DNA from: a virus
Taxonomy: Duplodnaviria > Caudoviricetes
DNA: 52,985 nucleotides
IMG/VR virus record: IMGVR_UViG_3300030099_007681
Coordinates: 1 to 52,985 of that record
Direction: 5' to 3' (one strand)
Part shown: piece by piece, positions 32,686 through 44,638 of the stretch
How the letters are laid out: each line of letters starts with the position of its first letter
Numbering within the stretch: position 1 is the first letter of the stretch
The notes under the pieces: generated by a model
What the model was told of the DNA's origin: nothing
Seen by the model: only the letters and a program-made list of their open reading frames with translations
The model's database searches: none
Program-made: the position numbers and the translations under genes

Positions 32686-33030
32686 ATGCCCACAAGATAT
32701 ACAAAATCAAGATTTTTAGAAAATGACTCAGAATTTTATAGATTTTTAAGAGAAAAACGCAATGGTGCAAAAAGCATCACACATATGTCTACGGTTATGC
32801 TGAAACACCCATCTTTGCTAGATAGGATTAATTTAAAAACCACTAGCCACATATGGAAATATGGTGACAGATTTTACAATTTAGCATACAAGTATTATAA
32901 TAATCCTGAATACTGGTGGATTATAGCTTGGTATAATGGGTTGCCCACCGAAGCAGATGTTAGAAGTGGTGATCCGCTGGTTATTCCTTTAAATATTGAA
33001 GATGTTCTAATAGCGCTCGGAGTATATTAA
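32686..33030 (+). CDS. LysM-like baseplate wedge protein (gp53-like)
   Basis: GDRFYNLAYKYYNNPEYWWIIAWYN...GDPLVIP. Confidence 0.8.
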   Translation: MPTRYTKSRFLENDSEFYRFLREKRNGAKSITHMSTVMLKHPSLLDRINLKTTSHIWKYGDRFYNLAYKYYNNPEYWWIIAWYNGLPTEADVRSGDPLVIPLNIEDVLIALGVY

Positions 33031-36000
33031 TGTCTAATGGTATAACTCAAGATATTTTAAACGATCCAAAACGTTTACAAGAATATTACGAAGAAAAATT
33101 CAAAGATAATCCGTTTATTAAGGATAATTATCGCAAAGAATGGAAGCAACAAAATGTCGCAAATATAACTTCCAAAAAATGTGGGCTTATTTATGGCACC
33201 TGGACATCAACTAATGGAGCTATGGCCGGTTACAAAGCTATAGATGGTTTGGGCTCTGAAGCTCCACCGATACCGCCAAATAACTTTGGACGTCGCCGCG
33301 GCGAGCCAGCGGCAAAAAGCTGGGCGGACTATTTCAGTGGTGAAATTAGAGTTCAAAGTCAAAAAAACCGTGAGTTGTTAAACCTTGAGGCTCGCGAGCC
33401 GGGCCGAAACGCTGTCAAAAGAGTTATAAACGATGAATTATATGCACCAAAGGCTCAAAATTTAATTTTTGAATCTGCATGTGGTAAAAATTTGAAAGAT
33501 TTAGAAGTACTACTTGATTATAAATTTAACGAAGAAAAGAAGAAATCTTTGGGTTCCACTCTCCAAGGAGATGTAGACAGTATAGGCGCGCAGTCAAAAA
33601 AAGAAACACTCGCATGTGCAAGAAGACTTGCAGAATATAGAACAAGTCTTGAGCAGGCTCTAAATTTATTTTGGACAAGCGCAAAAAGACCCGATGTTGG
33701 TTTATTTAATGATTATGATTCTGATCAACTCAGAGGTATGGTGCCTTCACCACCAGCCAGAGTAAAACCAGCTGCTCCAACCCTAAATAAAGCTCAGGTG
33801 GCTTCCGAAAGTGTATTTGGTGCCGGGGAAGTTGCTGATGCGGTCGCCGATGAAGAAATATCATCTACTCCATCTTTTGTAAACCCACAAGATAACCCAC
33901 TTTTTATTCCACAAGTGACAGATCCACAAGCAATGTTTAAAGATGCAATTGGTGATGCAGTATCTGTGGAAATTGCGTCTTCATTACCATCTTGGGTCGT
34001 GTTTTCCCCAACTGGAATACCCACAACAAATGGCGCACCTCTTGCTTCCGCGCCCACAAGTTATAAATTTAGATGGGATTTTTTGTTAATTGATCAAAAC
34101 GCGAGAAACTCACTTAAAAACCCTGAATGGTACAAAGATTTAGCTGCCTCACCAAGTGTAAAAACAGTCAGTATGATGCCTACATTATTTGCATCTCTTT
34201 GTGTTGGAATTCACAATGCTATAGAATATGTGTTGTTGCCTGCACTTCCAAACGCTGCACAAGTTGATGCTTATCAAGGCGGCGCCGATGGCTCCGATAT
34301 ACAACTATATAATCAAGCGCAATCTATCTTAAGGGCCATGGATGGCGGAGACCAGAACGCCTTTCCGCTGCAGCCACCTATAGGAGAAGATGAAAGTTAT
34401 GATTCTGTTATTAACTACGCCCAAGAATCAATTGGCAAGCTTGACAATAGTCAAATTAAAACATGGCTCGGTCGCGACTCACTAACAACTTTAAAAAACT
34501 TTTTAAATGCTATAAAAGAAGATGCAAAATGCATTAAAAAAGAAAAAGACGAACTTGATAAAAACTTAGACAACATAAAGGAGGCGGTGCCAGAAGCAGC
34601 TAAAGAAGTATTAAACGAAGACGACGCGAAGGACGTCGCCACCGATTCAGCAGCTGTCATTGATAGCTTTGACATTGACAATATTGGCTTTACAAGTCCA
34701 ACTGATAAAAAACTTTTTAAAGAACAATGTTTCCTTTTGGCATTTGCTGCAAAAATTGCATCTTATAAAAACAACACACTTGACTACTCAATTGGTACCA
34801 CACCGGCACATCCTGCGGGAGTACATAAGCGATTACCATATGAAAATTTATCACAATTTGGGATTAGACAAACAGAGTTTGCAGCTAAAAAAGACTTTAA
34901 TGCTTCCATTCAAATGAGTGGCGATCCTTTTGGGTTCATCAATAAGCTAACGCAAAGCCCTAATTATTCAGATTTACTAGACATAGGACACGACCAGCTT
35001 TCGTCGTTGCAACCAAAAATAAGACTGTTCAAGGTTGTTTATAATGATAACCAGCTTAATCGTAGCGGCCAATTTGTAAATTCTGAAAAAGAAAGAGAAA
35101 TTGAAATTGCTTTTAATTCTGTATTTTCAAAAAGCGAGCTAGACGAGATATACATCGGCAGTAAAGCAAGATCCGCTGGTATTGGTTTAAAAAGTTTTGA
35201 GTTTACTTACGATGGCAACAATCCTTTTTCATATAAAAAGAGTATTAAAGCAAAACTTGTTTTGCACGCCGCTTCATTTCAAGAGTTTTTTGTTCCAAGA
35301 ACAGGAAAGTTTAGAGACTATGAGGGTTCCGAATTATTGTTAGGCGGCAAAGAATCTTATCGATATATTGATTTAGCGCTAAAAACATTTACCACATTTA
35401 ATAAGCTTAATACCGTTTCAGCCCAGTATGCAAAATTAAGAGATCAAAATTCAAACTTAGCTAAATTAAATTTTAGGTTAAAGGCAGTAGTCGGCTGGTC
35501 AGTACCGCCAGGAAATATTCCTGGAATTGATCCAGAACAAAAAAAACGTTTAGTTAGAGCAATTTCTAACTCGTTTGTTACACTAAATTTAACACCTACA
35601 ATACACAATTTTAATTTTGAACAAGATGGCTCGGTTACCTTAGAGATTGATTACTTAGCATATATTGATGATTTTTTTGATGATCGGGGATTTAATGTTT
35701 TTGCTGATCCGTCTGGTGTTGTTGGCTGGCAAAGAGAACTGAGAAAACTTAAGATGAAGCGCTTACGCTCCGCGTGTAAGTCTGCCGAAGGGATTCAAGA
35801 ATTAAATGAAAAATATAAGGATACTGTGCAAAAAGAAATTAATGATTCACTTAGCTCATTAATAAGTTCTTTAATTAACAATAATAAAATTTATTATATT
35901 AATTTGAATTATGCAAAAATACAAGATTTTATTGCTAGTGGCCCATATCAAAATTATGAAAATTATGTTATTAAAAATGCTAGAGGCGACATTATTGTTA

Positions 36001-37538
36001 GCGATGATGAAAAAGATGAAATTGTTGCAAAACAAATTAATTCTGCGCTAGAATCTTACAAAGCGCAAAGAGAAGAGTATAATAATGCAGGTGGTTCCGC
36101 TGAAGAACCACCGAACCTTGGTGCCGCGCTATACGCAGCGTCACCACAGAGCAATGAACTCAGCTTTTTTTATCTAGGTGATTTAATAGATATAGTTTTA
36201 GAAAACATACAAAAAGAGCAGGCTGTTCTTATTTCACAATTTGAAAGCGAACAAAACAAAGAACAATTCACTTTCCCAAAAAAATCAGCAATTGCAAATC
36301 TGGGATTAACAAATGCTTTAAAGTCTGAAGGCGAAGATGGAAACAAAGACAAAATTTCTATTGTTGACTGGAACGAAAGACGAATTGAATTAGAAAAATT
36401 TGCAAGAAATTTAAAAAGAATGAGAATTCTTCTTGGGCCTGTAGAATTAGTCCACCACAAAAAACAAGCAGAGGGTAATATTAGTGAATTTGTAAACTTT
36501 GGGGATGTTCCTATATCGGTTAAGTATTTTATGGAGTGGATTTCTGGTAAAGTACTATCAAAAGACGAAGTATTTTACGCACTCCCGGTTTTCATCACAC
36601 AGCTCATGAACAATTTAGTTTCTAAATTTTTAAATAATAACAATTGCTTCTTTTTTGACATTAAACAAAAAGTAAGAGTCAACCAATGTTCACTAACAAC
36701 ATTCAGTCCTCCCGAATATGGCGGAAAAGATGAATTAACAAATCTATTGGTTTCGCCTATTATAGCGTCCAAAGCAAAATTAATGAAAAAATTTAATAGG
36801 GCCGGTAGTCCGACCAGATTGAATTTGTCTGATTCATCTGTTCTGCATCATCGTGGCCTTAATGCTGATGGTACTATTGCAAATCCTAATTTATTAAGAC
36901 CGATTCTTAATGTTTCTGGCCGCGCAAATGAAGAAAATATAAACTACCCAATTTTAAATAATGAAATTAATTATATGGTTTTTTTCGCAGGTCAGGTTTC
37001 TAAGCCCAGTGAATATCCTGTTGATAAAGAAGAGAATAGAAGGAATGGCATATTTCATTATCTTCTTGGCAGGGACCGCGGCTTAATAAAAGAAATTAAC
37101 TTACAAAAAACTACTTCTAAAGGATTAGCTGAAGTTAGATTTGAGCAAGATGGATATGATGGGTTAAAACAATTGAGAGTTATTTATGATTTAGATGTGA
37201 CAACATATGCTAATGTAAATACATTTCCTGGTACGTATATATATGTGCCAGCCGCCGGCTTTGATCCTGCAATGTCTACAAACCTTATAACCACAACTGA
37301 TGGTGATGGAAATTTAATGCCTCTTCGTATGGAAGAACTAGGTATAGGTGGTTACTATATGATTATTCGCTCAACACATAAATTTGGAATTGGCGAGGCA
37401 ACAACTGAAATATCCGCTAAATGGATTGCAGGGCTTGCTAGCGACTACCCGATAGCAGAGGGCGAAAATTCTGATCCTTCTGAGGTAGGTTGTGCCGAGG
37501 CGATCAATACAAGAAAAGAAAAAATGAGTAGTTCGTGA
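33030..37538 (+). CDS. large baseplate hub-like protein, 1502 aa
   Basis: After the LysM gene; LQPKIRLFKV, GIGLKSFEF, C-terminal PGTYIYV...GIGGYYMIIRSTHKF...TEISAKW suggest a gp27/VgrG-type hub. Confidence 0.55.
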   Translation: MSNGITQDILNDPKRLQEYYEEKFKDNPFIKDNYRKEWKQQNVANITSKKCGLIYGTWTSTNGAMAGYKAIDGLGSEAPPIPPNNFGRRRGEPAAKSWADYFSGEIRVQSQKNRELLNLEAREPGRNAVKRVINDELYAPKAQNLIFESACGKNLKDLEVLLDYKFNEEKKKSLGSTLQGDVDSIGAQSKKETLACARRLAEYRTSLEQALNLFWTSAKRPDVGLFNDYDSDQLRGMVPSPPARVKPAAPTLNKAQVASESVFGAGEVADAVADEEISSTPSFVNPQDNPLFIPQVTDPQAMFKDAIGDAVSVEIASSLPSWVVFSPTGIPTTNGAPLASAPTSYKFRWDFLLIDQNARNSLKNPEWYKDLAASPSVKTVSMMPTLFASLCVGIHNAIEYVLLPALPNAAQVDAYQGGADGSDIQLYNQAQSILRAMDGGDQNAFPLQPPIGEDESYDSVINYAQESIGKLDNSQIKTWLGRDSLTTLKNFLNAIKEDAKCIKKEKDELDKNLDNIKEAVPEAAKEVLNEDDAKDVATDSAAVIDSFDIDNIGFTSPTDKKLFKEQCFLLAFAAKIASYKNNTLDYSIGTTPAHPAGVHKRLPYENLSQFGIRQTEFAAKKDFNASIQMSGDPFGFINKLTQSPNYSDLLDIGHDQLSSLQPKIRLFKVVYNDNQLNRSGQFVNSEKEREIEIAFNSVFSKSELDEIYIGSKARSAGIGLKSFEFTYDGNNPFSYKKSIKAKLVLHAASFQEFFVPRTGKFRDYEGSELLLGGKESYRYIDLALKTFTTFNKLNTVSAQYAKLRDQNSNLAKLNFRLKAVVGWSVPPGNIPGIDPEQKKRLVRAISNSFVTLNLTPTIHNFNFEQDGSVTLEIDYLAYIDDFFDDRGFNVFADPSGVVGWQRELRKLKMKRLRSACKSAEGIQELNEKYKDTVQKEINDSLSSLISSLINNNKIYYINLNYAKIQDFIASGPYQNYENYVIKNARGDIIVSDDEKDEIVAKQINSALESYKAQREEYNNAGGSAEEPPNLGAALYAASPQSNELSFFYLGDLIDIVLENIQKEQAVLISQFESEQNKEQFTFPKKSAIANLGLTNALKSEGEDGNKDKISIVDWNERRIELEKFARNLKRMRILLGPVELVHHKKQAEGNISEFVNFGDVPISVKYFMEWISGKVLSKDEVFYALPVFITQLMNNLVSKFLNNNNCFFFDIKQKVRVNQCSLTTFSPPEYGGKDELTNLLVSPIIASKAKLMKKFNRAGSPTRLNLSDSSVLHHRGLNADGTIANPNLLRPILNVSGRANEENINYPILNNEINYMVFFAGQVSKPSEYPVDKEENRRNGIFHYLLGRDRGLIKEINLQKTTSKGLAEVRFEQDGYDGLKQLRVIYDLDVTTYANVNTFPGTYIYVPAAGFDPAMSTNLITTTDGDGNLMPLRMEELGIGGYYMIIRSTHKFGIGEATTEISAKWIAGLASDYPIAEGENSDPSEVGCAEAINTRKEKMSSS

Positions 37539-37539
37539 T

Positions 37540-38805
37540 ATGTCAAAATATTTAGTTGAAGAAAACTCTGAATCATCAATTCTACTTTTTAACAAAAGAA
37601 GACTATATCGGTCCATTTTGAGAGGACAAAACCATAATAATATTATACAAATGGACGTGGCAGAAAAAATATTATACGGTAGAATTGATTCAAACTTTTT
37701 ACCCTTAATCGTAACCAAAGCAAATCTAACAAGGTTACAAAGTTTTGATAATGAATTTGATCCTCCAAAAGCATTAAATTTTGTTGCGGACCTGTTTGCC
37801 GAAGTTGTTACACAATTTAAAAAATGCACCCAGATTGGAAATATTAGGCAAAATGATACCTACTTAAGTAATTTAAAAGCGTACAAAGCTTACGTGGACC
37901 CAATTGAGGAATATCAGCAATACATACAAACATACTCCGACTCAATTGCTGGTATGTTTATTGCTGACAATATTAAGGTCACAAACTTTGATGAGTTCAA
38001 AGAGGCTATACTGCCAGTCTTAAAAACTGCAGCTAGTTTTGAGCCCATAACATTTACTGGATTTTTAAAAAGTAAAAATTGTTCTGTCTTATCTACAGGA
38101 CTGGCGATTGAGATTGCAGATTCTGATTATATCAATGATAATGAAAAATTTGAAAGCTTTATTCAAAGTGAAAACTGGGAATTTTTTGTTAACACTTGCG
38201 ATTCGTATGGATTTATGGTAGATTTAAATGTTCCCTGGAGAATGATTATTGACCTTAATTCAACAGCAGCAATTGAAGCAGCTTCAAGATATATTGATGT
38301 TGCGACAGCAGATCAAACCTTATTTTATTATTACCAAAATTCATCAAGGGTAAATTATTCATTTTTTAAAAAAACATTGCTTGATCTTTATATGAATATA
38401 AGAAAAAACTATGCGCAAATATTTGAGTGCCAGGTAAGTAGAAAGCTTGTTCCGTCAGTCATTTCTGCACAAGCGTATACACTTGAGCAATTAACAAAAA
38501 AATATGATGAACAATATTTTATAGATTTTTATACAAGATTAAGATTGTTTGAAGAAAGGCGCGAATTGGACTCTGAAAAAATTAACAAAATTGTTGATGA
38601 TCAAATAAGTTTTTTTAATAGTAATGGAGACTACGAGCGTCTTTTTGTATATTTAGAGTCTCAAATCAATAAAACATTTGACAAAGAAGGCTCATTGGGA
38701 TATTATAACAATCTGTATAGAAAACGCAAGATTGAAAAATTTAATTTAGGCGAAATAAATATTCTAACAACTACAGAAGGTGGAGATGATTTTTCAGGCT
38801 ATTGA
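37540..38805 (+). CDS. hypothetical protein, 421 aa
   Basis: Long ORF coupled to the hub gene; motifs LYGRID and YGFMVDLNVPWRMIIDL; function unrecognised. Confidence 0.7.
   Translation: MSKYLVEENSESSILLFNKRRLYRSILRGQNHNNIIQMDVAEKILYGRIDSNFLPLIVTKANLTRLQSFDNEFDPPKALNFVADLFAEVVTQFKKCTQIGNIRQNDTYLSNLKAYKAYVDPIEEYQQYIQTYSDSIAGMFIADNIKVTNFDEFKEAILPVLKTAASFEPITFTGFLKSKNCSVLSTGLAIEIADSDYINDNEKFESFIQSENWEFFVNTCDSYGFMVDLNVPWRMIIDLNSTAAIEAASRYIDVATADQTLFYYYQNSSRVNYSFFKKTLLDLYMNIRKNYAQIFECQVSRKLVPSVISAQAYTLEQLTKKYDEQYFIDFYTRLRLFEERRELDSEKINKIVDDQISFFNSNGDYERLFVYLESQINKTFDKEGSLGYYNNLYRKRKIEKFNLGEINILTTTEGGDDFSGY
38678..38706 (+). promoter_or_regulatory. sigma70-type promoter for polA-tubulin
   Basis: TTGACA-17-TATTAT inside the 3' end of the upstream CDS. 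Confidence 0.6.
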
Positions 38806-39955
38806 TGACAAAAATGAATGCATCGGCATATATGCCAACGGAAAACTTGATTTTGAAAATATACCAACTGGACTTACCCGAACATGGAAATACAGCGGGT
38901 CTGTAACTGATGAGGCAATTGAATATGGTTGGCTTTACGCAGGTGGCAAAAAATTAATTGATTGTTGTCCAGATGAACTAGTGGATGAATTACAAAGCGC
39001 ACAGAAAAAAGCGCGCGCTTACATCAAATCATTTGAAATTGCAAAAATTAATTTACGTGACCATTGTATATATGATTTAATACCATATGACTTTCTCATG
39101 GAGTTTTGCGAAGTTAAAAATAAAGTCACTGAGCACGTATTTAACAATTTTAACAAACCAAATAACTATGAACACTTAAATGCTGTGCAAAAATTGCTTC
39201 ATAAAATAAAGTATCAAAATTTAAACATCGATATTAGTGATTGCAAGCACTTACTAATATCATCCGTCGTAAGAAGTAAGATACAGAGGATATCAAAGAA
39301 TAATTTTATTGACTATGATTTATTTGGCACAGTAACAGGCCGTCTTACAACAAAACAAAATTCATTCCCTGTGCTTACTATGAAAAAAGAAATTAGACAA
39401 ATTATGAAGCCAAATAACGACCTTTTTATAGCATTGGATTACAATGGCGCAGAGGTGAGAACACTGCTTGAGCTACAGAGTGTTGAACAGCCAGCCGAGG
39501 ACATTCACGAGTGGAACTGTAAACATCTTTTTGAGCAAGAGGTTACAAGAGATGAGTGTAAGGTAAGATTTTTTGCATGGCTATATGATCCTGAATCAAC
39601 TGACATTAATACAAGATTATATAACCGTGAAAATCTTTTAGAAACGTGGTATGATGGCACGCATATTAGTACTCCATATGGCCGGCGCATTAAAGTAGAA
39701 AAAAGAAAAGCATTCAATTATTTAATTCAAAGTACAACTGCGGATCGTGTTTTAGAAAAAGCTGTTAAAATTGATAAATTGCTGGAAGGCCACAAAAGTT
39801 ACATATCTCATATAATTCATGATGAAATTGTTTTAGATTATTCTGATGAAGATCGTGGGTTAATTCCTTTAATAAAAAATATATTCGAAGATGGATTCTT
39901 GTCTTCGGTAAGTGCTGGAAAAAATGGGTTTGAACTAAAAGAGATAAAAATATGA
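38786..39955 (+). CDS. minimal family A DNA polymerase (polymerase domain only)
   Basis: TVTGRL, motif A LDYNGAEVR, motif B RDECKVRFFAWLY, NYLIQSTTAD, motif C IHDEI; about 390 aa; start ATG 38786 or GTG 38780. Confidence 0.85.
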   Translation: MIFQAIDDKNECIGIYANGKLDFENIPTGLTRTWKYSGSVTDEAIEYGWLYAGGKKLIDCCPDELVDELQSAQKKARAYIKSFEIAKINLRDHCIYDLIPYDFLMEFCEVKNKVTEHVFNNFNKPNNYEHLNAVQKLLHKIKYQNLNIDISDCKHLLISSVVRSKIQRISKNNFIDYDLFGTVTGRLTTKQNSFPVLTMKKEIRQIMKPNNDLFIALDYNGAEVRTLLELQSVEQPAEDIHEWNCKHLFEQEVTRDECKVRFFAWLYDPESTDINTRLYNRENLLETWYDGTHISTPYGRRIKVEKRKAFNYLIQSTTADRVLEKAVKIDKLLEGHKSYISHIIHDEIVLDYSDEDRGLIPLIKNIFEDGFLSSVSAGKNGFELKEIKI

Positions 39956-40815
39956 TTTCTATTATTGGATTAGGAAACGCTGCTTCAGCGATAGCAGAAC
40001 TGTTCTCAGAAATTAAGCAATACAAAATTTACAAACTTAATTCAAAAATTGAAAAAAATACTAAGTATAACTTTAAATTAAAAAATTTTGATAAGCCGGA
40101 AGATTATGAAAAAAATATTCCCAGATTAGGTAAGTTTTTTAGTACTATTGATAATAATGTACAGTTTATTGTTATGGGGGGCTCCTACAGTTCTAACTAC
40201 ACTTTAGGAATTTTAGAACAAATAAAAGATAAGCCCATAGACTTAATTTATATTCAGCCAGACACCGAATTACTAACGGGCAATCCTGTATTAATAGAAA
40301 ACACAACATTTGGAGTGCTTCAGGAGTATGCTAGGTCAGGATTGATAAACTCAATTACTTTAATTTCTAATCTTGCAATTGAAGAGTCTCTTGGAGACAT
40401 TAACATTAAAAACTATTATAATTCGCTAAACAACTTCATTTTTTCTGCAGTTCATCATTTAAATTATTTTGTACATTCAGAGCCAGAAATTGGACAGGTC
40501 TCACGTCCTGCTGATATTAATCGAATTCGTGCCATAGCTGGTCTTAATATGAAAAATCTTGAAGAAAAATGGTTTTTTAATCTTGACAACCCCAGAGAGC
40601 TATGTTATTATTTAGCTATAAATACAAAAAGATTGGAGACTGAAGGAGGCTTGCATAAAAAAATTGTAGATATGCTTAAACAAAAACCAAAAAATGCATT
40701 TCGCAAAATTTCTTATGCAATTTATGAAACACCTTACAATGACTTTGGGTTCTGCGTTGCCCATACTAACGTAGTACAAAACAAAAAAACTCTTGACAAG
40801 CTAGAACAAGAGTGA
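39952..40815 (+). CDS. divergent tubulin/FtsZ-family protein
   Basis: T1 loop ISIIGLGNAASAIAE, degenerate signature loop VMGGSYSS, YIQPD, ITLISN, YYNSLN; ATGA-coupled to polA. Confidence 0.7.
   Translation: MISIIGLGNAASAIAELFSEIKQYKIYKLNSKIEKNTKYNFKLKNFDKPEDYEKNIPRLGKFFSTIDNNVQFIVMGGSYSSNYTLGILEQIKDKPIDLIYIQPDTELLTGNPVLIENTTFGVLQEYARSGLINSITLISNLAIEESLGDINIKNYYNSLNNFIFSAVHHLNYFVHSEPEIGQVSRPADINRIRAIAGLNMKNLEEKWFFNLDNPRELCYYLAINTKRLETEGGLHKKIVDMLKQKPKNAFRKISYAIYETPYNDFGFCVAHTNVVQNKKTLDKLEQE
40583..40611 (+). promoter_or_regulatory. sigma70-type promoter inside the tubulin-like gene
   Basis: TTGACA-17-TATTAT with extended -10 TG. Confidence 0.55.
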
Positions 40816-40821
40816 TACATT
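40793..40821 (+). promoter_or_regulatory. sigma70-type promoter for ssb
   Basis: TTGACA-17-TACATT with extended -10 TG and an A-rich UP region. Confidence 0.7.
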
Positions 40822-40872: not shown

Positions 40873-41643
40873 ATGTCAATCAATATGGAACTAATGAGAA
40901 AGAAACTTGCCACACTTCGTGGGGAGCGTGACAAGGATGAAAGCTCACCCTTTTTTAAGCCAGACGAGGGCGATACCGATATTCGTATTGTGCCCACCAA
41001 TGATGGCGACCCCTTGAAGGAAATGTTCTTCCACTATAATGTGGGCGATCACAAGGGAGGTATTCTCTGCCCTAAGCGTAATTACGGGGAGACATGCCCA
41101 ATTTGCTCATTCGCTTCTTCACTTTGGCGTGAAGGAGTTGACAACAACGATGATGAGAGTAAGAAGCTTGCTAAAAGCCTCTTTGTGCGAACCCGCTACT
41201 TCTCACCAGTCATTGTGCGAGGACGAGAAGAAGAAGGAATCAAGGTCTATGGCTACGGTAAGCAAGCCTATGAACTTCTTCTTGGATATATTCTCGATCC
41301 AGAATATGGTGATATCACAGATTCCAAGGAGGGAACCGATATCACTCTTACATACACCAAGCCAAACAAGCCTGGTGCATATCCACAAACGAGCCTCAAG
41401 ATGCGCCGTAACACATCCACCTTGCTGGAAGACGCAGAAGCGATCCCCGCCCTCCTTGATCGCATGCCTGACTTTGACGGACTTTTTGAACGTCTTAGTG
41501 CTCAGCAAGTCGGCGCTATCTTGGACGAGCAACTTTCGGGTGATAGTTCAGCCGAAAGCCGCTCTTCAGAAACAGCTAAATATGGTCCCGCCAACGGTAA
41601 GAGCAGTGTTGACCAAGCATTTGATGAACTAATGAGTAGCTAA
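40873..41643 (+). CDS. single-stranded DNA-binding protein (T4 gp32-like)
   Basis: KPDEG..DIRIVP, Zn site HY...CPKRNYGETCPIC, DITDSKEGTDI, acidic tail AFDELMSS. Confidence 0.85.
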   Translation: MSINMELMRKKLATLRGERDKDESSPFFKPDEGDTDIRIVPTNDGDPLKEMFFHYNVGDHKGGILCPKRNYGETCPICSFASSLWREGVDNNDDESKKLAKSLFVRTRYFSPVIVRGREEEGIKVYGYGKQAYELLLGYILDPEYGDITDSKEGTDITLTYTKPNKPGAYPQTSLKMRRNTSTLLEDAEAIPALLDRMPDFDGLFERLSAQQVGAILDEQLSGDSSAESRSSETAKYGPANGKSSVDQAFDELMSS

Positions 41644-41664
41644 TATAACTAGGCTCTTGTGAGA

Positions 41665-41699
41665 CCGATGGCAGACCGGGATAAAAAATAGTCTGCCAT
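41665..41699 (+). repeat. conserved pseudoknot/hairpin element, copy 1
   Basis: CCG-A-TGGCAGAC-CGG-GATAAAAAATA-GTCTGCCA(T), then ATTTT. Confidence 0.8.
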
Positions 41700-41724
41700 A
41701 TTTTACCAATAAAGGAGAAATAGT

Positions 41725-41976
41725 ATGTTAGATTGGTTAAAGGCCGCATGGGCCAGCTGGAGAATTAGAGTAGCAGTAGTTGGAGGCACACTTGTTGTTG
41801 CAACCGCATATGGAACCTGCTCTGTGGATCCACAAGAGGTTTCAGAGGCCGAGGTAGTACCACAAGTTGAGACTGAAACTAAACAAGTTTCAGAAACTAC
41901 AACCACAGAAACTGCAACAGAAGTTTCCGCTGATACCACCGCTGAAACGACTACTGAAACAAACGCAACAGAATAA
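41725..41976 (+). CDS. small membrane-anchored Thr/Glu-rich protein
   Basis: AAGGAG SD; hydrophobic VAVVGGTLVVATAYGTC followed by a T/E-rich low-complexity tail. Confidence 0.7.
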   Translation: MLDWLKAAWASWRIRVAVVGGTLVVATAYGTCSVDPQEVSEAEVVPQVETETKQVSETTTTETATEVSADTTAETTTETNATE

Positions 41977-41983
41977 GCTGCAG

Positions 41984-42012
41984 CCGCTGGCAGACCGGTG
42001 TAAAGTCTGCCG
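41984..42012 (+). repeat. conserved pseudoknot/hairpin element, copy 2
   Basis: CCG-C-TGGCAGAC-CGG-TGTAAA-GTCTGCCG, then CTTTT. Confidence 0.8.
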
Positions 42013-42081
42013 CTTTTATCAACCACAAAATCGCGAACATAAGATTGTTTAGATGCGATAACAACAAATAAGGAAACAAAC

Positions 42082-43395
42082 ATGACTAGACACGTTATAA
42101 CATTGCCTCTTGCGGGCAAAAATGCTGTTGCACAAGCAGCGCTTCCTCGCCAGGAAGCATCACCAGATGATGTACCAATTATGCACTATGTGTGCTTTGT
42201 TGAACCATCTATTAATAATGGGCTGGAGCTAATTCCAAAGGGCCCAAACCCTCGATATGTCAATATTGATGGTAAAATTCCTAAAGAAATTGAAAAGTCT
42301 TTTATTGAAGACGAAAACTTTGCTATTAAGAATAGAGGCTTACAAATTATTATTGATGATGGGTCATTTGATGTTGTTACAATCGATGGAACACCACACG
42401 TGAAGTTTAGTTGTTCAGAACCCGGCATGACTGGCCATTATGATGGTCAACATACAGGTGATCGGGTTACCACTGCTGTAAAGCAGCTTGGAGAGCAGGG
42501 TCACAAGCAACACTTACCAGTTCAGTTGGTAGAAAGAGCAGCCTTTAGGACTCTTAAGGAAATGCGCGATGCTGCCAAAGCAATTAATAATGTACAGAAA
42601 CAAAAGAATATTAGTGAATTTGATATTGCTGGTGGGTTTGATGAACTCAAGAATAATTTAAGCTATTGTGCTCAAGAAAACATTGGCTGGGCTCAAAATC
42701 AAATTTCTACAGCCGGTACCCGCGTCACCAGTGAATGTCAGGCTACACAAGTTACTTGCCTGCTTGGTTCTTTGCTGCCTAAGACTTTTAGATCTGGCGC
42801 ATCTTTAAGTGACATTAGTTCGTGGCCCAAAAAGGGCGAAGCTGTAATTAATAAGTTTAACGAAAAAGGAGTTGGACAATTGCTCTACCGCGCAGCTACT
42901 GAGATTGATACGCTATTGGAACTGTCAGACTATATCCAAAGCACGCTGAAAAGTACTTTAGGGGGCCAATATGAAACCTATGGTATTTTGAGGGCTTCCA
43001 CCGCCGCACAGTTAAAAAAGTCAGTTGAGGATAGAAAAGCATATAAGTCCTCTTTATTTAAGACCGGGGGATCTAACGACCATACGCTAAATAAAGATAT
43101 CATGCCAGTTGTATGTTATTCAATTGTCAATAGTGTTTATGAATATGACGACCAGTCTGGGTTTACTACAAATTATTCAATTGACGAAATGAAGGCAATT
43201 TGGAAGGAGGCAGGCCCTGCGGTTCTTTCTAGCATTGAAAATCGTTATCGTAATAGTTTTCAGACAAATTATAAATCACGTTGGGCTGATTTTGCTTTAG
43301 ATATTACAATGTGGGCACAGTGTGCCGATCTTGTTCAGCGAGTAATTTATAATCCTCAATCCTGGAAGAGACACTTAAGTCAAAAAGTTGCTTAA
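42082..43395 (+). CDS. AIPR-like (ParB-superfamily) protein
   Basis: GPNPR...FAIKNRGLQI...GHYDGQHT...INN.QKQK matches the AIPR NxR / FxxxNnGi / (D/N)GxQ(H)T pattern. Confidence 0.65.
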   Translation: MTRHVITLPLAGKNAVAQAALPRQEASPDDVPIMHYVCFVEPSINNGLELIPKGPNPRYVNIDGKIPKEIEKSFIEDENFAIKNRGLQIIIDDGSFDVVTIDGTPHVKFSCSEPGMTGHYDGQHTGDRVTTAVKQLGEQGHKQHLPVQLVERAAFRTLKEMRDAAKAINNVQKQKNISEFDIAGGFDELKNNLSYCAQENIGWAQNQISTAGTRVTSECQATQVTCLLGSLLPKTFRSGASLSDISSWPKKGEAVINKFNEKGVGQLLYRAATEIDTLLELSDYIQSTLKSTLGGQYETYGILRASTAAQLKKSVEDRKAYKSSLFKTGGSNDHTLNKDIMPVVCYSIVNSVYEYDDQSGFTTNYSIDEMKAIWKEAGPAVLSSIENRYRNSFQTNYKSRWADFALDITMWAQCADLVQRVIYNPQSWKRHLSQKVA

Positions 43396-43402
43396 TAAAT
43401 AT

Positions 43403-43430
43403 CCGCTAGCACACCGGTTAAAGTGTGCTA
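43403..43430 (+). repeat. conserved pseudoknot/hairpin element, copy 3
   Basis: CCG-C-TAGCACAC-CGG-TTAAA-GTGTGCTA, then TTTTT; two compensatory pairs relative to copy 1. Confidence 0.8.
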
Positions 43431-43436
43431 TTTTTC

Positions 43437-43465
43437 TTGACACTTGATTCAGCACGTGATAAGAT
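43437..43465 (+). promoter_or_regulatory. sigma70-type promoter for recA
   Basis: TTGACA-17-TAAGAT with extended -10 TG. Confidence 0.65.
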
Positions 43466-43489
43466 ACAATATAATTTATAGGAGGGCTA

Positions 43490-44638
43490 ATGGCCAGAAA
43501 AGCAAAACCAAAGGCAGGTCGTGTAGATATGCAAGATCTGATGAAACTAGTAAATAAGAAGGCAGGTAGAAATGTCGCACATGATTTAACTGGCGATAAT
43601 CCTACATCAGTAAAAGAATGGATTCCAACAGGATCTAGGTGGCTAGATTCTATTATTTGCAAAGGACAGGTTTCTGGTATTCCTGTTGGCAAGGTTACTG
43701 AAATCGCTGGCCTTGAAGCAACAGGTAAATCATACATGGCTGCACAAATTGCGGCGAACGCTCAAAAAACAGGTAAGTTGGTTGTATATTTTGATTCTGA
43801 ATCTGCAATTGATCCAACTTTTTTGGAGCGTTCTGGGTGTGATTTAGGGCGATTAATGTATGTTCAAGCATCCTCCGTGGAGTTTGTGCTTGAAACTATT
43901 GAAGAACTTTTGGGCGCCACTGATGAACAACTAGTTTTTATCTGGGACTCGCTGGCTTTCACGCCATCTATTTCAGATGTAGAGGGCGATTTCAATCCTC
44001 AGTCTTCAATGGCAGTCAAGGCTCGAATCTTAGCTAAAGGAATGTCAAAATTGACTATTCCAATTGCAGATAAACAAGCTACTTTTATTGTTCTTAACCA
44101 ATTGAAGACAAATATTCCACAAGGACCAACGGCGCGTATTGTAGCAATGACAACGCCATATATCACGCCGGGTGGAAAAGCCATGCACTATGCATATTCG
44201 TTGCGTGTATGGCTTACTGGTCGCAAAGCAAAATCTTCGTTTATTGAAGATGAAAAAGGGTTTCGCATTGGCTCTGAAGTCAAAGTGAAGCTTGAAAAGT
44301 CAAGATTTGGTACGCAAGGTCGATCCTGTGCTTTTCGTATCTTATGGGGGACAGATGAGATTGGCATTCGCGACGAAGAAAGCTGGTTTGATGCCATTAA
44401 AGGTTCCGATTCGTTAACATCTGCAGGGGCATGGTATACATTATCCACCTCCGATGGTTATACGAAAAAGTTCCAACCCTCCAAATGGACTGAGTTAGTT
44501 ACTAGTGATGAAGAATTTAGAAATCGCGTAATTAGAATTATGGATGAAGAAATTGTTCAAAAATTTGATAAACGCGAAGGTGATGCTAGTAATTATTACG
44601 AAGATCCTGATGATCTCACTGTGCCCGTAAAAGAATAA
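43490..44638 (+). CDS. recA: RecA/UvsX recombinase
   Basis: IPTGS, EIAGLEATGKS (Walker A), FDSESAID, WDSLA, NQLK, TPGGKAM. Confidence 0.93.
   Translation: MARKAKPKAGRVDMQDLMKLVNKKAGRNVAHDLTGDNPTSVKEWIPTGSRWLDSIICKGQVSGIPVGKVTEIAGLEATGKSYMAAQIAANAQKTGKLVVYFDSESAIDPTFLERSGCDLGRLMYVQASSVEFVLETIEELLGATDEQLVFIWDSLAFTPSISDVEGDFNPQSSMAVKARILAKGMSKLTIPIADKQATFIVLNQLKTNIPQGPTARIVAMTTPYITPGGKAMHYAYSLRVWLTGRKAKSSFIEDEKGFRIGSEVKVKLEKSRFGTQGRSCAFRILWGTDEIGIRDEESWFDAIKGSDSLTSAGAWYTLSTSDGYTKKFQPSKWTELVTSDEEFRNRVIRIMDEEIVQKFDKREGDASNYYEDPDDLTVPVKE

Follow-up and report, generated by a model that had tools for sequence, protein, structure and literature searches.

The operator of phage T4 gene 32 is a pseudoknot with a 1-nt loop 1 and a 7-bp stem 2. 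In its published description it spans ~28 nt and is followed by an unstructured UUAAA/UAAA-rich stretch of more than 40 nt that holds the ribosome-binding site (RBS) (PMC535899). The element analysed here resembles it in architecture. It occurs three times between the genes for a gp32-like single-strand DNA-binding protein (SSB) and a RecA/UvsX-like recombinase in IMGVR_UViG_3300030099_007681, the IMG/VR record of a tailed virus (Caudoviricetes), the whole of which (52,985 bp, one contig) was analysed and is called the window below. As in the gene 32 operators of T4, T2 and RB69, the predicted fold is a compact H-type knot placed between cistrons beside an SSB gene, in which two stems stack coaxially and loop 1 is very short. 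In T4 a U/A-rich unstructured stretch with the RBS comes next (PMC535899); here it is a UUUUAA-type tail, with a start codon 12-36 nt on in 81/115 elements of the clade, which is shorter than in T4. The T4 knot is part of the leader 5' of gene 32, the very gene it regulates, whereas the present element stands 3' of the SSB gene, reaches five copies, and elsewhere lies behind head genes or before tRNAs. The likeness meant here is one of architecture.

A second precedent is provided by the PeSL (promoter-early stem-loop) cassettes of T4-like phages. Two reports propose, and in part demonstrate, that PeSLs give rise to indels and swaps through homologous recombination and that they work as terminators or attenuators (PMC2839356; PMC4122927). 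PeSLs and the present element have in common that they are regulatory motifs, short and repeated, beside small ORFans in a hyperplastic stretch with core genes on either side; the flanked ORFans differ between close relatives here too, as seen in a map of 61 intervals and in a breakpoint at the tail of copy 2. Recombination between PeSL copies would give indels or mini-circles, and the cassette maps suggest recombination between copies of the present element. A PeSL is described there as a sigma-70 promoter with a simple, often G/C-tract stem-loop, spread over several genome regions. The present motif is instead a covarying pseudoknot found in one interval only, and a promoter adjoins only copy 3, with none by copies 1 and 2.

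Intrinsic terminators and 3' stabiliser hairpins share with the element a place right behind SSB and head genes, a G+C-rich stem and, in the clade of the window, a U run. Unlike them, the element has a large loop locked by a second stem and a U tract that is offset in this clade and absent in most other members, and read-through past it is obligatory at the loci where the interval is shortest. Integron attC sites have R''/L''-L'/R' boxes and a length of roughly 57-141 bp. They too lie at the 3' end of cassettes, in tandem arrays of variable content, but the present element comes with no integrase, has no conserved R/L boxes (its consensus is CCGCUGGCAGACCGG...GUCUGCCR), is shorter, shows RNA-type covariation and is also found as a single copy. 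Frameshift and readthrough pseudoknots of the luteovirus type are compact, with a 1-2-nt loop 1 (often C), an A-rich loop 3 and a position 6-10 nt after the ribosome pause codon. The element is like them in size, short loop 1, A-rich loop 3 and position 6-10 nt after such a codon, and unlike them in having no slippery site, no open frame past the stop and a variable spacing after gp32. A readthrough or frameshift signal was rejected, since in-frame stops occur within a few codons and the gp32 spacing varies from 13 to 30 nt.

The earlier note on this DNA, made from its letters, had not recognised the element as a described family, and Rfam 15 gave no relevant match for window positions 41000-44000 at E<=10 or for 20 carrier loci at E<=1. 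No occurrence was found in the searched supplements of an IMG/VR catalogue of about 10,000 structured RNAs (PMC10690425), three files of which, outside the search, could list the hairpin. Two 2026 preprints on intergenic motif mining mention no such element in the parts searched, and a literature text search for core sequence strings returned unrelated matches only, apparently primers. The element is a virus-specific RNA family absent from Rfam. Its fold is of a known type, with the gene 32 operator as the nearest analogue, and its cassette behaviour is PeSL-like; it lacks defining features of each, standing 3' and not 5' of the SSB gene and having no built-in promoter.

The element and its fold

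The earlier note had placed a copy of the element just after each of three stop codons, and all three copies were recovered at those sites on the + strand. Their parts are given below, S1a (the CCG of each copy) and S1b being the two strands of stem 1 (S1) and S2a and S2b those of stem 2 (S2); the bit scores are those of a covariance model, R1.

41665..41706, + strand: copy 1, long-loop type, 46.2 bits; CCG 41665-41667, loop 1 A 41668, S2a TGGCAGAC 41669-41676, S1b CGG 41677-41679, loop 3 41680-41690, S2b GTCTGCCA 41691-41698, U-rich tail 41699-41706
41984..42020, + strand: copy 2, short-loop type, 48.4 bits; CCG 41984-41986, C 41987, S2a TGGCAGAC 41988-41995, CGG 41996-41998, loop 3 TGTAAA 41999-42004, S2b GTCTGCCG 42005-42012, tail CUUUUAUC 42013-42020
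43403..43436, + strand: copy 3, short-loop type, 39.9 bits; CCG 43403-43405, C 43406, S2a TAGCACAC 43407-43414, CGG 43415-43417, loop 3 TTAAA 43418-43422, S2b GTGTGCTA 43423-43430, tail UUUUUC 43431-43436

The gaps from stop codon to copy are 21, 7 and 7 nt, as had been noted (stops at 41641-43, 41974-76 and 43393-95), and copy 3 does carry two altered arm bases together with both of their partners (TAGCACAC/GTGTGCTA). The next best site for R1 in the window reaches only 11.8 bits. The degenerate 15-nt pattern CCGNTRGCASACCGG has three matches against 0.03 +/- 0.17 expected, a number reached in 0/100 shuffles, and a generic scan for the architecture on both strands of the window returned the three copies and two poor minus-strand matches (31282 and 28482). 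Nested folding turned the copies into hairpins of -11.2 to -13.5 kcal/mol (copy 1, -13.4 kcal/mol, z -3.1), and a consensus terminator scan fully flagged only copy 3 as terminator-like.

A RecA search of IMG/VR returned at least 598 relatives, and the best 80 loci (80-95% identity) were kept. With the window added, 4 loci without a usable gp32 end and 16 that repeat another interval set aside, these gave 61 distinct gp32-recA intervals from a marine clade. In a scan of the relatives that defined a hairpin only by an arm starting T[AG]G[CT] and left flank and loop free, 115 of 141 hairpins had CCG at positions -4 to -2 and CGG as the first loop bases; the remaining 26 are G.U-rich, with no CCG and no T tail, and apparently lie inside open reading frames (ORFs). 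Within the clade CCG/CGG is invariant (115/115 elements), so that covariation of S1 cannot show there, and S2 covaries, with ten arm types each having a matching 3' arm. Two subtypes can be told apart, a post-gp32 copy with a long loop ending AAAUA and other copies with 5-6 nt after CGG. The tail consensus is C-N-UUUU-A-A, with C directly after the stem in 101/115 copies and TTTTA in 70/115 tails, against 12.7 in shuffles, and the next start codon lies 12-36 nt past the tail in 81/115.

Plain hairpin terminators, in which CCG and CGG are kept by descent only and form no tertiary pairing, would fit both this invariance, since the clade alone gives no covariation, and the simple hairpins of about -11 to -13.5 kcal/mol obtained by nested folding. 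The wider family speaks otherwise. An IMG/VR scan for the arms only (TGGCAGAC, 5-17 nt, GTCTGCC) found at least 123 loci, and among the matches listed were 49 CCG/CGG copies and others whose differing flank and loop triplets match each other. Fully complementary triplets were present in 23 of 110 distinct non-canonical rows (both strands) among the matches listed, compared with 9.4 +/- 2.8 for permuted loops; 0/5000 permutations reached 23.

Three conditional IMG/VR scans kept the arms fixed, forced one S1a base to be non-canonical and left the loop free. They returned at least 120 matches for position -4, and complete sets of 53 for position -3 and 18 for position -2. Among the position -4 matches listed, A was accompanied by loop CGT in 9/12, G by CGC in 51 and CGT in 8 of 88, and T by CGA in 13 and CGG in 6 of 20. 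At position -3, CTG came with CAG in 33 and with CGG in 2 of 37 and CGG with CCG in 4 and CTG in 1 of 14, while CAG fitted in 0/2; at position -2, CCC came with GGG in 5/5, CCT fitted in 1/12 and CCA in 0/1. At least 25 loci with G at position -4 (including L221 and L229) share the near-identical sequence tatgagGCGC-TGGCAGAC-CTGGGCGTCCCG-GTCTGCC, whose loop triplet CTG does not fit the S1 rule; this group, taken for one clade, may be a different element or a reading of the other strand. The other misfits, roughly 10-15 per scan, were judged to lie near the level of chance hairpins, which is a rough estimate and not a computed figure.

As a control, the same arms were sought in 596 Gb of prokaryote genomes, where 8/130 rows had at least three contiguous S1 pairs, the chance level. 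Only two of these eight prokaryote-genome matches resemble the true element (CCG...CGG), which we call class I: L429, a Victivallis vadensis contig in which the loop is A-rich and the tail U-rich, and L509. Both are probably prophages. In an alignment of 139 sequences (A1), 92.6% of cells were paired, as against 28-38% with the partners slid. The non-marine rows of A1 were chosen for S1 pairs 1-3, which makes those three pairs circular there; the unselected fourth S1 pair (columns 6:22) is formed in 105/138 sequences, by six pair types.

The fold drawn in the earlier note, an H-type pseudoknot whose loop 1 is a single nucleotide and in which loop 2 is absent, therefore owes its support to the relatives, in which all three S1 positions covary across IMG/VR. 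The pairing of CCG with CGG shows no covariation within the clade and does show it in the wider family with the same arms. Comparison of these sequences supports the prediction that each copy would be transcribed as a compact H-type RNA pseudoknot. A plain hairpin without tertiary pairing is disfavoured by the compensatory changes at three S1 positions and at a fourth; these changes, the prokaryote control at chance and the loop-flank covariation of a second class, described below, make plain hairpin terminators very unlikely.

The element is 35-48 nt long. S2 has 7-8 bp with a GGC/GCC base, loop 1 is C or A, loop 2 is absent, and loop 3 is A-rich, 5 to 17 nt long and variable in sequence. Among 138 distinct members S1 measures 3 bp in 28, 4 in 51, 5 in 36, 6 in 16 and 7 in 7. 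The first arm base, U (U11), is invariant, the T at this position being fixed by the search patterns outside the marine clade, and its nominal partner is unpaired in 35/138. As U11 is so often without a partner, loop 1 probably has 2 nt (C/A + U) in the working geometry and S2 7 bp, a sterically comfortable arrangement in H-type pseudoknots. Long-loop members of A1 (such as L154, L193, L350, L353 and L380) carry G-Y-G-C-G-A-H-A-H directly after S1b, and short loops read U-N-A-A-A. A double-stranded DNA operator for a dimeric protein was rejected, since the spacing of the arms varies from 8 to 20 nt.

A second pseudoknot class occupies the same slot behind gp32 in more distant relatives (gp32 36-81% and RecA 42-88% identical) and recurs before recA in some of them. 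Its layout is S1a (3 nt), RCRGG, GAGGCAC, R, S1b, UUAUCAG or UUACAG, GUGCCUC. S1 is fully complementary in 30/33 distinct elements, with six pair combinations, against 9/187 for other hairpins with the same arms. Its members, in coordinates of their own loci, are as follows.

L049, 5935-5990: second-class element
L033, about 3660: second-class element
L567-L679, e.g. L580, 890-930: second-class elements
L602 (also within L567-L679), 901-925 and 1440-1462: second-class elements

The presence of two unrelated pseudoknots at one slot argues that the fold itself is selected there.

The gp32-recA interval and its cassettes

In the window the three copies punctuate a block of genes that all lie on one strand.

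40873..41643, + strand: gp32-like single-strand DNA-binding protein gene (PF08804, 2.6e-13; phrog_1192, 4.1e-22)
41725..41976, + strand: small ORF of 83 aa (cluster c0); its N-terminus is hydrophobic, ..YGTC resembles a lipobox, and the tail is acidic and T/E-rich
42082..43395, + strand: 437-aa accessory ORF (cluster c3), function unassigned, found in 5/61 intervals
43437..43465, + strand: sigma-70-like promoter (TTGACA, 17 nt, TAAGAT, with TG), between copy 3 and recA
43490..44638, + strand: RecA/UvsX-like recombinase gene (PF00154, 1.9e-34), the conserved right border of the variable interval

A promoter-like site (40793-40821) lies directly upstream of the gp32-like gene; none was seen in the window for c0 or c3 themselves, whereas copy 3 does have one after it. 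The c0 ORF has no match in Pfam or PHROG. The c3 ORF, earlier labelled AIPR-like, has no Pfam and no PADLOC match at E<=0.01, which leaves that label without support.

Across the 61 distinct intervals the distance between gp32 and recA ranges from 69 to 4732 nt, and a pseudoknot follows gp32 in every one (61/61), 13-30 nt past the last aligned gp32 residue. It is of class I in 59 (58 by a strict filter, plus a degenerate copy in L056) and of the second class in two (L033 and L049). The 95 ORFs of at least 25 aa in these intervals fall into 35 clusters. Elements bound the small ORFs c0 (lipoprotein-like, of about 80 aa), c1 (32-49 aa, its lipobox clear), c4 (an Hc1, histone H1-like, of 62 aa) and c7 (66-70 aa), whose stop codons lie 6-18 nt, with a mode of 7, before CCG. 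Copies stand on both sides of c0 in 19/21 relatives, and c1, c4 and c7 occur behind different neighbours but always between two elements, c1 being seen after c0, the first element, c11 or c4. With E for the element, the order in the window is E-c0-E-c3-E, and c3 is otherwise arranged as E-E-c3-E, E-c3 or E-c3-c2. Such reshuffled, copy-bounded small ORFs, in intervals of such unequal length, bear out the cassette-like array proposed in the earlier note. Its suggestion that copies might equal inserted genes plus one holds in 29/61 intervals (counting ORFs of at least 40 aa) and fails for large inserts.

Comparison of the window with a close relative, L001, locates a breakpoint: homology (69/70 identical) stops right after the tail of copy 2, at 42018, and the insert relative to L001 consists of the c3 leader, c3, copy 3 and the promoter. 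In the window and in the records of five long relatives the element is confined to the gp32-recA interval. One of these five, a complete 195-kb genome (with terminal repeats), has five strong matches, all inside that interval, and two other complete carrier genomes, of 134.8 and 113 kb, have 2 and 1. Most carrier genomes hold only 1-2 copies, arrays reaching five, and so few copies per genome argue that the element is not a general terminator.

An array of this kind also recalls the suggestion, made in the earlier note, of a folded single-stranded DNA recombination site, like an integron attC, at which a site-specific recombinase would capture cassettes. An imperfect palindrome does stand at the 3' end of each small cassette, copies number up to five, and cassette order varies. 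Against this, no tyrosine recombinase (PF00589) was detected in the window or in the complete carriers G003, G012 and G013, and no resolvase (PF00239) in the complete 195-kb relative, control genomes being positive in both searches; the element, at 35-48 nt, has no GTTRRRY-type boxes; most carriers hold just one or two copies; and the pairs, G.U among them, form on the sense strand in every case. The idea is left unsupported, and we regard it as scarcely credible.

The interval also accepts larger cargo, a helicase gene among it. Its genes for D12 N6-adenine DNA methyltransferases, an MzaB-like ATPase (HATPase), an NsnA-like protein and Hc1 look like defence or counter-defence content. Where the last, large insert carries no pseudoknot, recA has a sigma-70-like promoter of its own. 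At four marine loci a tRNA-Met (CAT) gene is the sole insert between gp32 and recA, or one of several, and lies 5-12 nt past the pseudoknot.

L075 1753-2748; L051 4930-5991; L076 5317-5505; L078 3357-4988; L056 1034-2296: hotspot cargo loci, Hc1 (histone H1-like) included
L012 3146-3222; L036 5897-5973; L040 414-490; L052 3983-4059: tRNA-Met genes

The window has a G+C content of 38.9% and an estimated completeness of 28% (CheckV), and its large ORFs are all on the + strand. It holds terminase, portal, major head, tail sheath and baseplate genes and is thus a myovirus fragment. Its replication and recombination block also holds DNA polymerase A pieces, UvdE, DUF4385, a 5'-3' exonuclease, a DnaB-like helicase and ribonucleotide reductase. 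In the region 37540-39955 only the ORF at 38780-39955 matches DNA polymerase family A, and in the C-terminal part only; the ORFs beside it (37540-38805 and 39952-40815) have no family match, so that a split or a highly divergent polymerase is possible. The tail module includes an ORF of 1502 aa (33030-37538) without a PHROG match. Among cultured phages, none matches the DNA of the 3.8-kb region, the best RecA is 31.6% identical, and the 48-nt element has a sole match, in one unannotated gut-phage record; two carrier loci that were checked have no close cultured relative. No annotated model phage is therefore at hand.

Contexts outside the marine group

More than 300 viral contigs, from sea water, soil and gut samples, carry the element. 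Non-marine class I members lie on the gene strand, at a median of 23 nt after a stop codon and 20.5 nt before a start. In 75 of 106 distinct non-marine cases a start codon lies no more than 40 nt downstream, against 46 in a reverse-strand control, and a Shine-Dalgarno-like motif is present in 36 of those cases against 11 in the control. Start and stop distances served as the strand test, since a version based on ORF coverage is uninformative in G+C-rich contigs. Most non-marine members have no U tract.

Flanking ORFs were annotated with PHROG in two batches (upstream 39 + 17, downstream 36 + 16), a near-duplicate clade in the second being cut to two. The upstream gene encodes an SSB in 6/56 non-marine cases, from four PHROG families (phrog_9002 twice, phrog_44 twice, and the Gp2.5-like phrog_7011 and phrog_112), and a major head protein in 2/56; an SSB was the downstream gene in 0/52. 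Downstream genes encode exonucleases, DNA polymerases, a primase, a small terminase, a tail protein and an anti-restriction protein. Two phages, represented by L681 (2215-2260) and L682 (2119-2160), have Gp2.5-like SSBs that are 52% identical; their S2, UGGCAGAC/GUCUGCCA, is exactly kept, and loop 3 and the S1 extension differ. This argues for selection on the sequence of the stem and not on pairing alone. In a reciprocal test with a Gp2.5-like SSB, which covered 3 loci only, the element followed the gene at the locus itself and at the 52%-identical one, not at a 30%-identical one.

The absence of a common function among the downstream genes bears on the notion of a small-molecule riboswitch built on an H-type pseudoknot. 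In size and topology the element is like pseudoknot riboswitches, and it lies just upstream of start codons; its loop 3, however, varies both in length (5 to 17 nt) and in sequence, the RBS lies outside the fold, and Rfam gives no match. We therefore consider a riboswitch extremely unlikely.

At four loci the element stands 7 nt before a tRNA gene: L214, L296 and L331 (tRNA-Trp, with near-identical elements) and L323 (tRNA-Tyr). At L214 a drum RNA (1066-1171; Rfam RF02958, 71.5 bits) lies directly upstream of the class I pseudoknot (1201-1234), which a tRNA array follows 7 nt on. Positions in tRNA arrays, here and at the four tRNA-Met loci of the marine clade, suit a further idea, that the element mimics a tRNA acceptor/T-arm minihelix, at which RNase P or some other enzyme of tRNA processing would cleave and so part the cistrons. 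A stack of ~12 bp would result from S2 (7 bp) and S1 (mostly 4-5 bp), with U as position -1, G as +1 and R-C as discriminator and C74. Agreement comes from the S1 lengths, of which 4 and 5 bp are the commonest, from the invariance of U11 in spite of its often unpaired partner, and from the C that follows the stem in most marine copies. However, most non-marine members do not have RCC behind the stem, and the T at position 11 is imposed by the search patterns outside the marine clade; we find such mimicry quite improbable.

A proposed expression step behind the SSB gene

Sequence comparison shows how the element folds and on which strand, how rare it is, that it is linked to the ends of SSB genes and that it stands at cassette borders; its mechanism is inferred. 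The reading that we tentatively prefer, with somewhat less than even confidence, is that this intercistronic RNA element makes expression step down past the SSB gene, by leaky termination or as a barrier to decay, and that its repeats are also used as recombination joints. It would act in cis within a polycistronic transcript, behind the SSB gene, whose product is required in large amounts. In this clade it would terminate leakily; in general, its fold would hold up 3'-to-5' decay and insulate the next cistron. The gp32 message would then be plentiful and long-lived, with less expression of the genes that follow. Copies behind accessory genes would be short DNA homology patches for the phage's own recombination system, letting modules of a gene and an element be gained, lost and reordered between gp32 and recA.

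An expression step is suggested by the pseudoknot behind gp32 in all 61 intervals and by the non-marine cases, with SSB genes upstream and never downstream and head protein genes upstream in two. At least ten loci have an interval of 69-93 nt with no room for a promoter before recA, which must then be transcribed through the element; this obligatory read-through, the excess of TTTTA tails and the promoter after copy 3 point the same way, as do the pseudoknots 5-12 nt before tRNA genes in several phages. That near-identical 35-45-nt copies also stand behind small accessory genes suggests homology patches at the level of DNA, and recombination joints are further indicated by c1, c4 and c7, each between two elements after varied neighbours, and by the homology with L001, which breaks off at the copy 2 tail. 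In four marine metatranscriptome runs, all of a single study, there are contigs identical to parts of gp32 and recA, and one contig spans the element of a relative with both flanks. Contigs reveal neither the ends of an RNA nor its strand, and DNA may have been carried over, so they permit no conclusion on read-through.

Several observations weigh against the step-down and its joints. Most non-marine members are without a U tract, so termination cannot be the family-wide mechanism; in the clade itself the U run is set 2-3 nt off the stem and hairpin loops are 8-14 nt long, poor features in an intrinsic terminator. A plain hairpin would suffice as a decay barrier, and the selected pseudoknot fold is left unexplained. 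So is the keeping of the S2 sequence at 52% SSB identity, which hints at a specific binding partner. Large inserts mostly have no trailing element, and no identical copy stands at the right edge of the c3 insert.

A binding partner is what an SSB-responsive translational operator would supply. Free gp32-like protein would nucleate at the pseudoknot and spread over the U/A-rich stretch and the RBS downstream, so that whichever cistron comes next, be it recA or a gene of a cassette, would be translated according to the unbound SSB pool, as in T4 gene 32. Such an operator would accord with the architecture of the T4 gene 32 operator, with the C-N-UUUU-A-A tail and the start codon that so often lies 12-36 nt beyond it, with the element behind genes for gp32-like proteins and four other SSB families and never before an SSB gene in the non-marine sample, with the second, unrelated class in the same slot of distant relatives, and with the S2 sequence kept between the two Gp2.5-like loci. 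Its difficulties are that the element is 3' of the SSB gene and not in a leader, no match to the model being found upstream of gp32 in the window; that the element is also found behind head-protein genes and before terminase, tail and tRNA genes; that unrelated SSB folds are unlikely to have one specific RNA target in common; and that in the window a promoter separates copy 3 from recA. On balance we hold an operator of this kind, the main rival of the step-down, to be rather unlikely. The same doubt attaches to its broader form, a portable SSB-sensing leader, in which phage-wide pseudoknots of at least two sequence classes stand behind SSB genes of several unrelated families: it is possible but unlikely. 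If true, the free SSB pool would gate translation of the recombinase, nuclease, polymerase or accessory gene that follows, the autoregulation of T4 gene 32, the single textbook case, would become a general modular control device, and the accumulation of units of a gene and a knot exactly between ssb and recA would be explained.

Among structured RNA families that only DNA phages have, very few are supported by covariation, and the present one, although tiny (about 35-45 nt), is a real pseudoknot. Its placement behind SSB genes of unrelated families points to a common rule of phage gene expression, which could be an SSB dose set against that of partner enzymes, or a feedback of SSB on them. In the marine myovirus group copies of the element border a hotspot in which genes for methyltransferases, histone-like proteins and lipoproteins accumulate, along with defence-like genes, and a hotspot so bordered is a testable model of how hotspots are built, with a fold simple enough for direct experimental tests.

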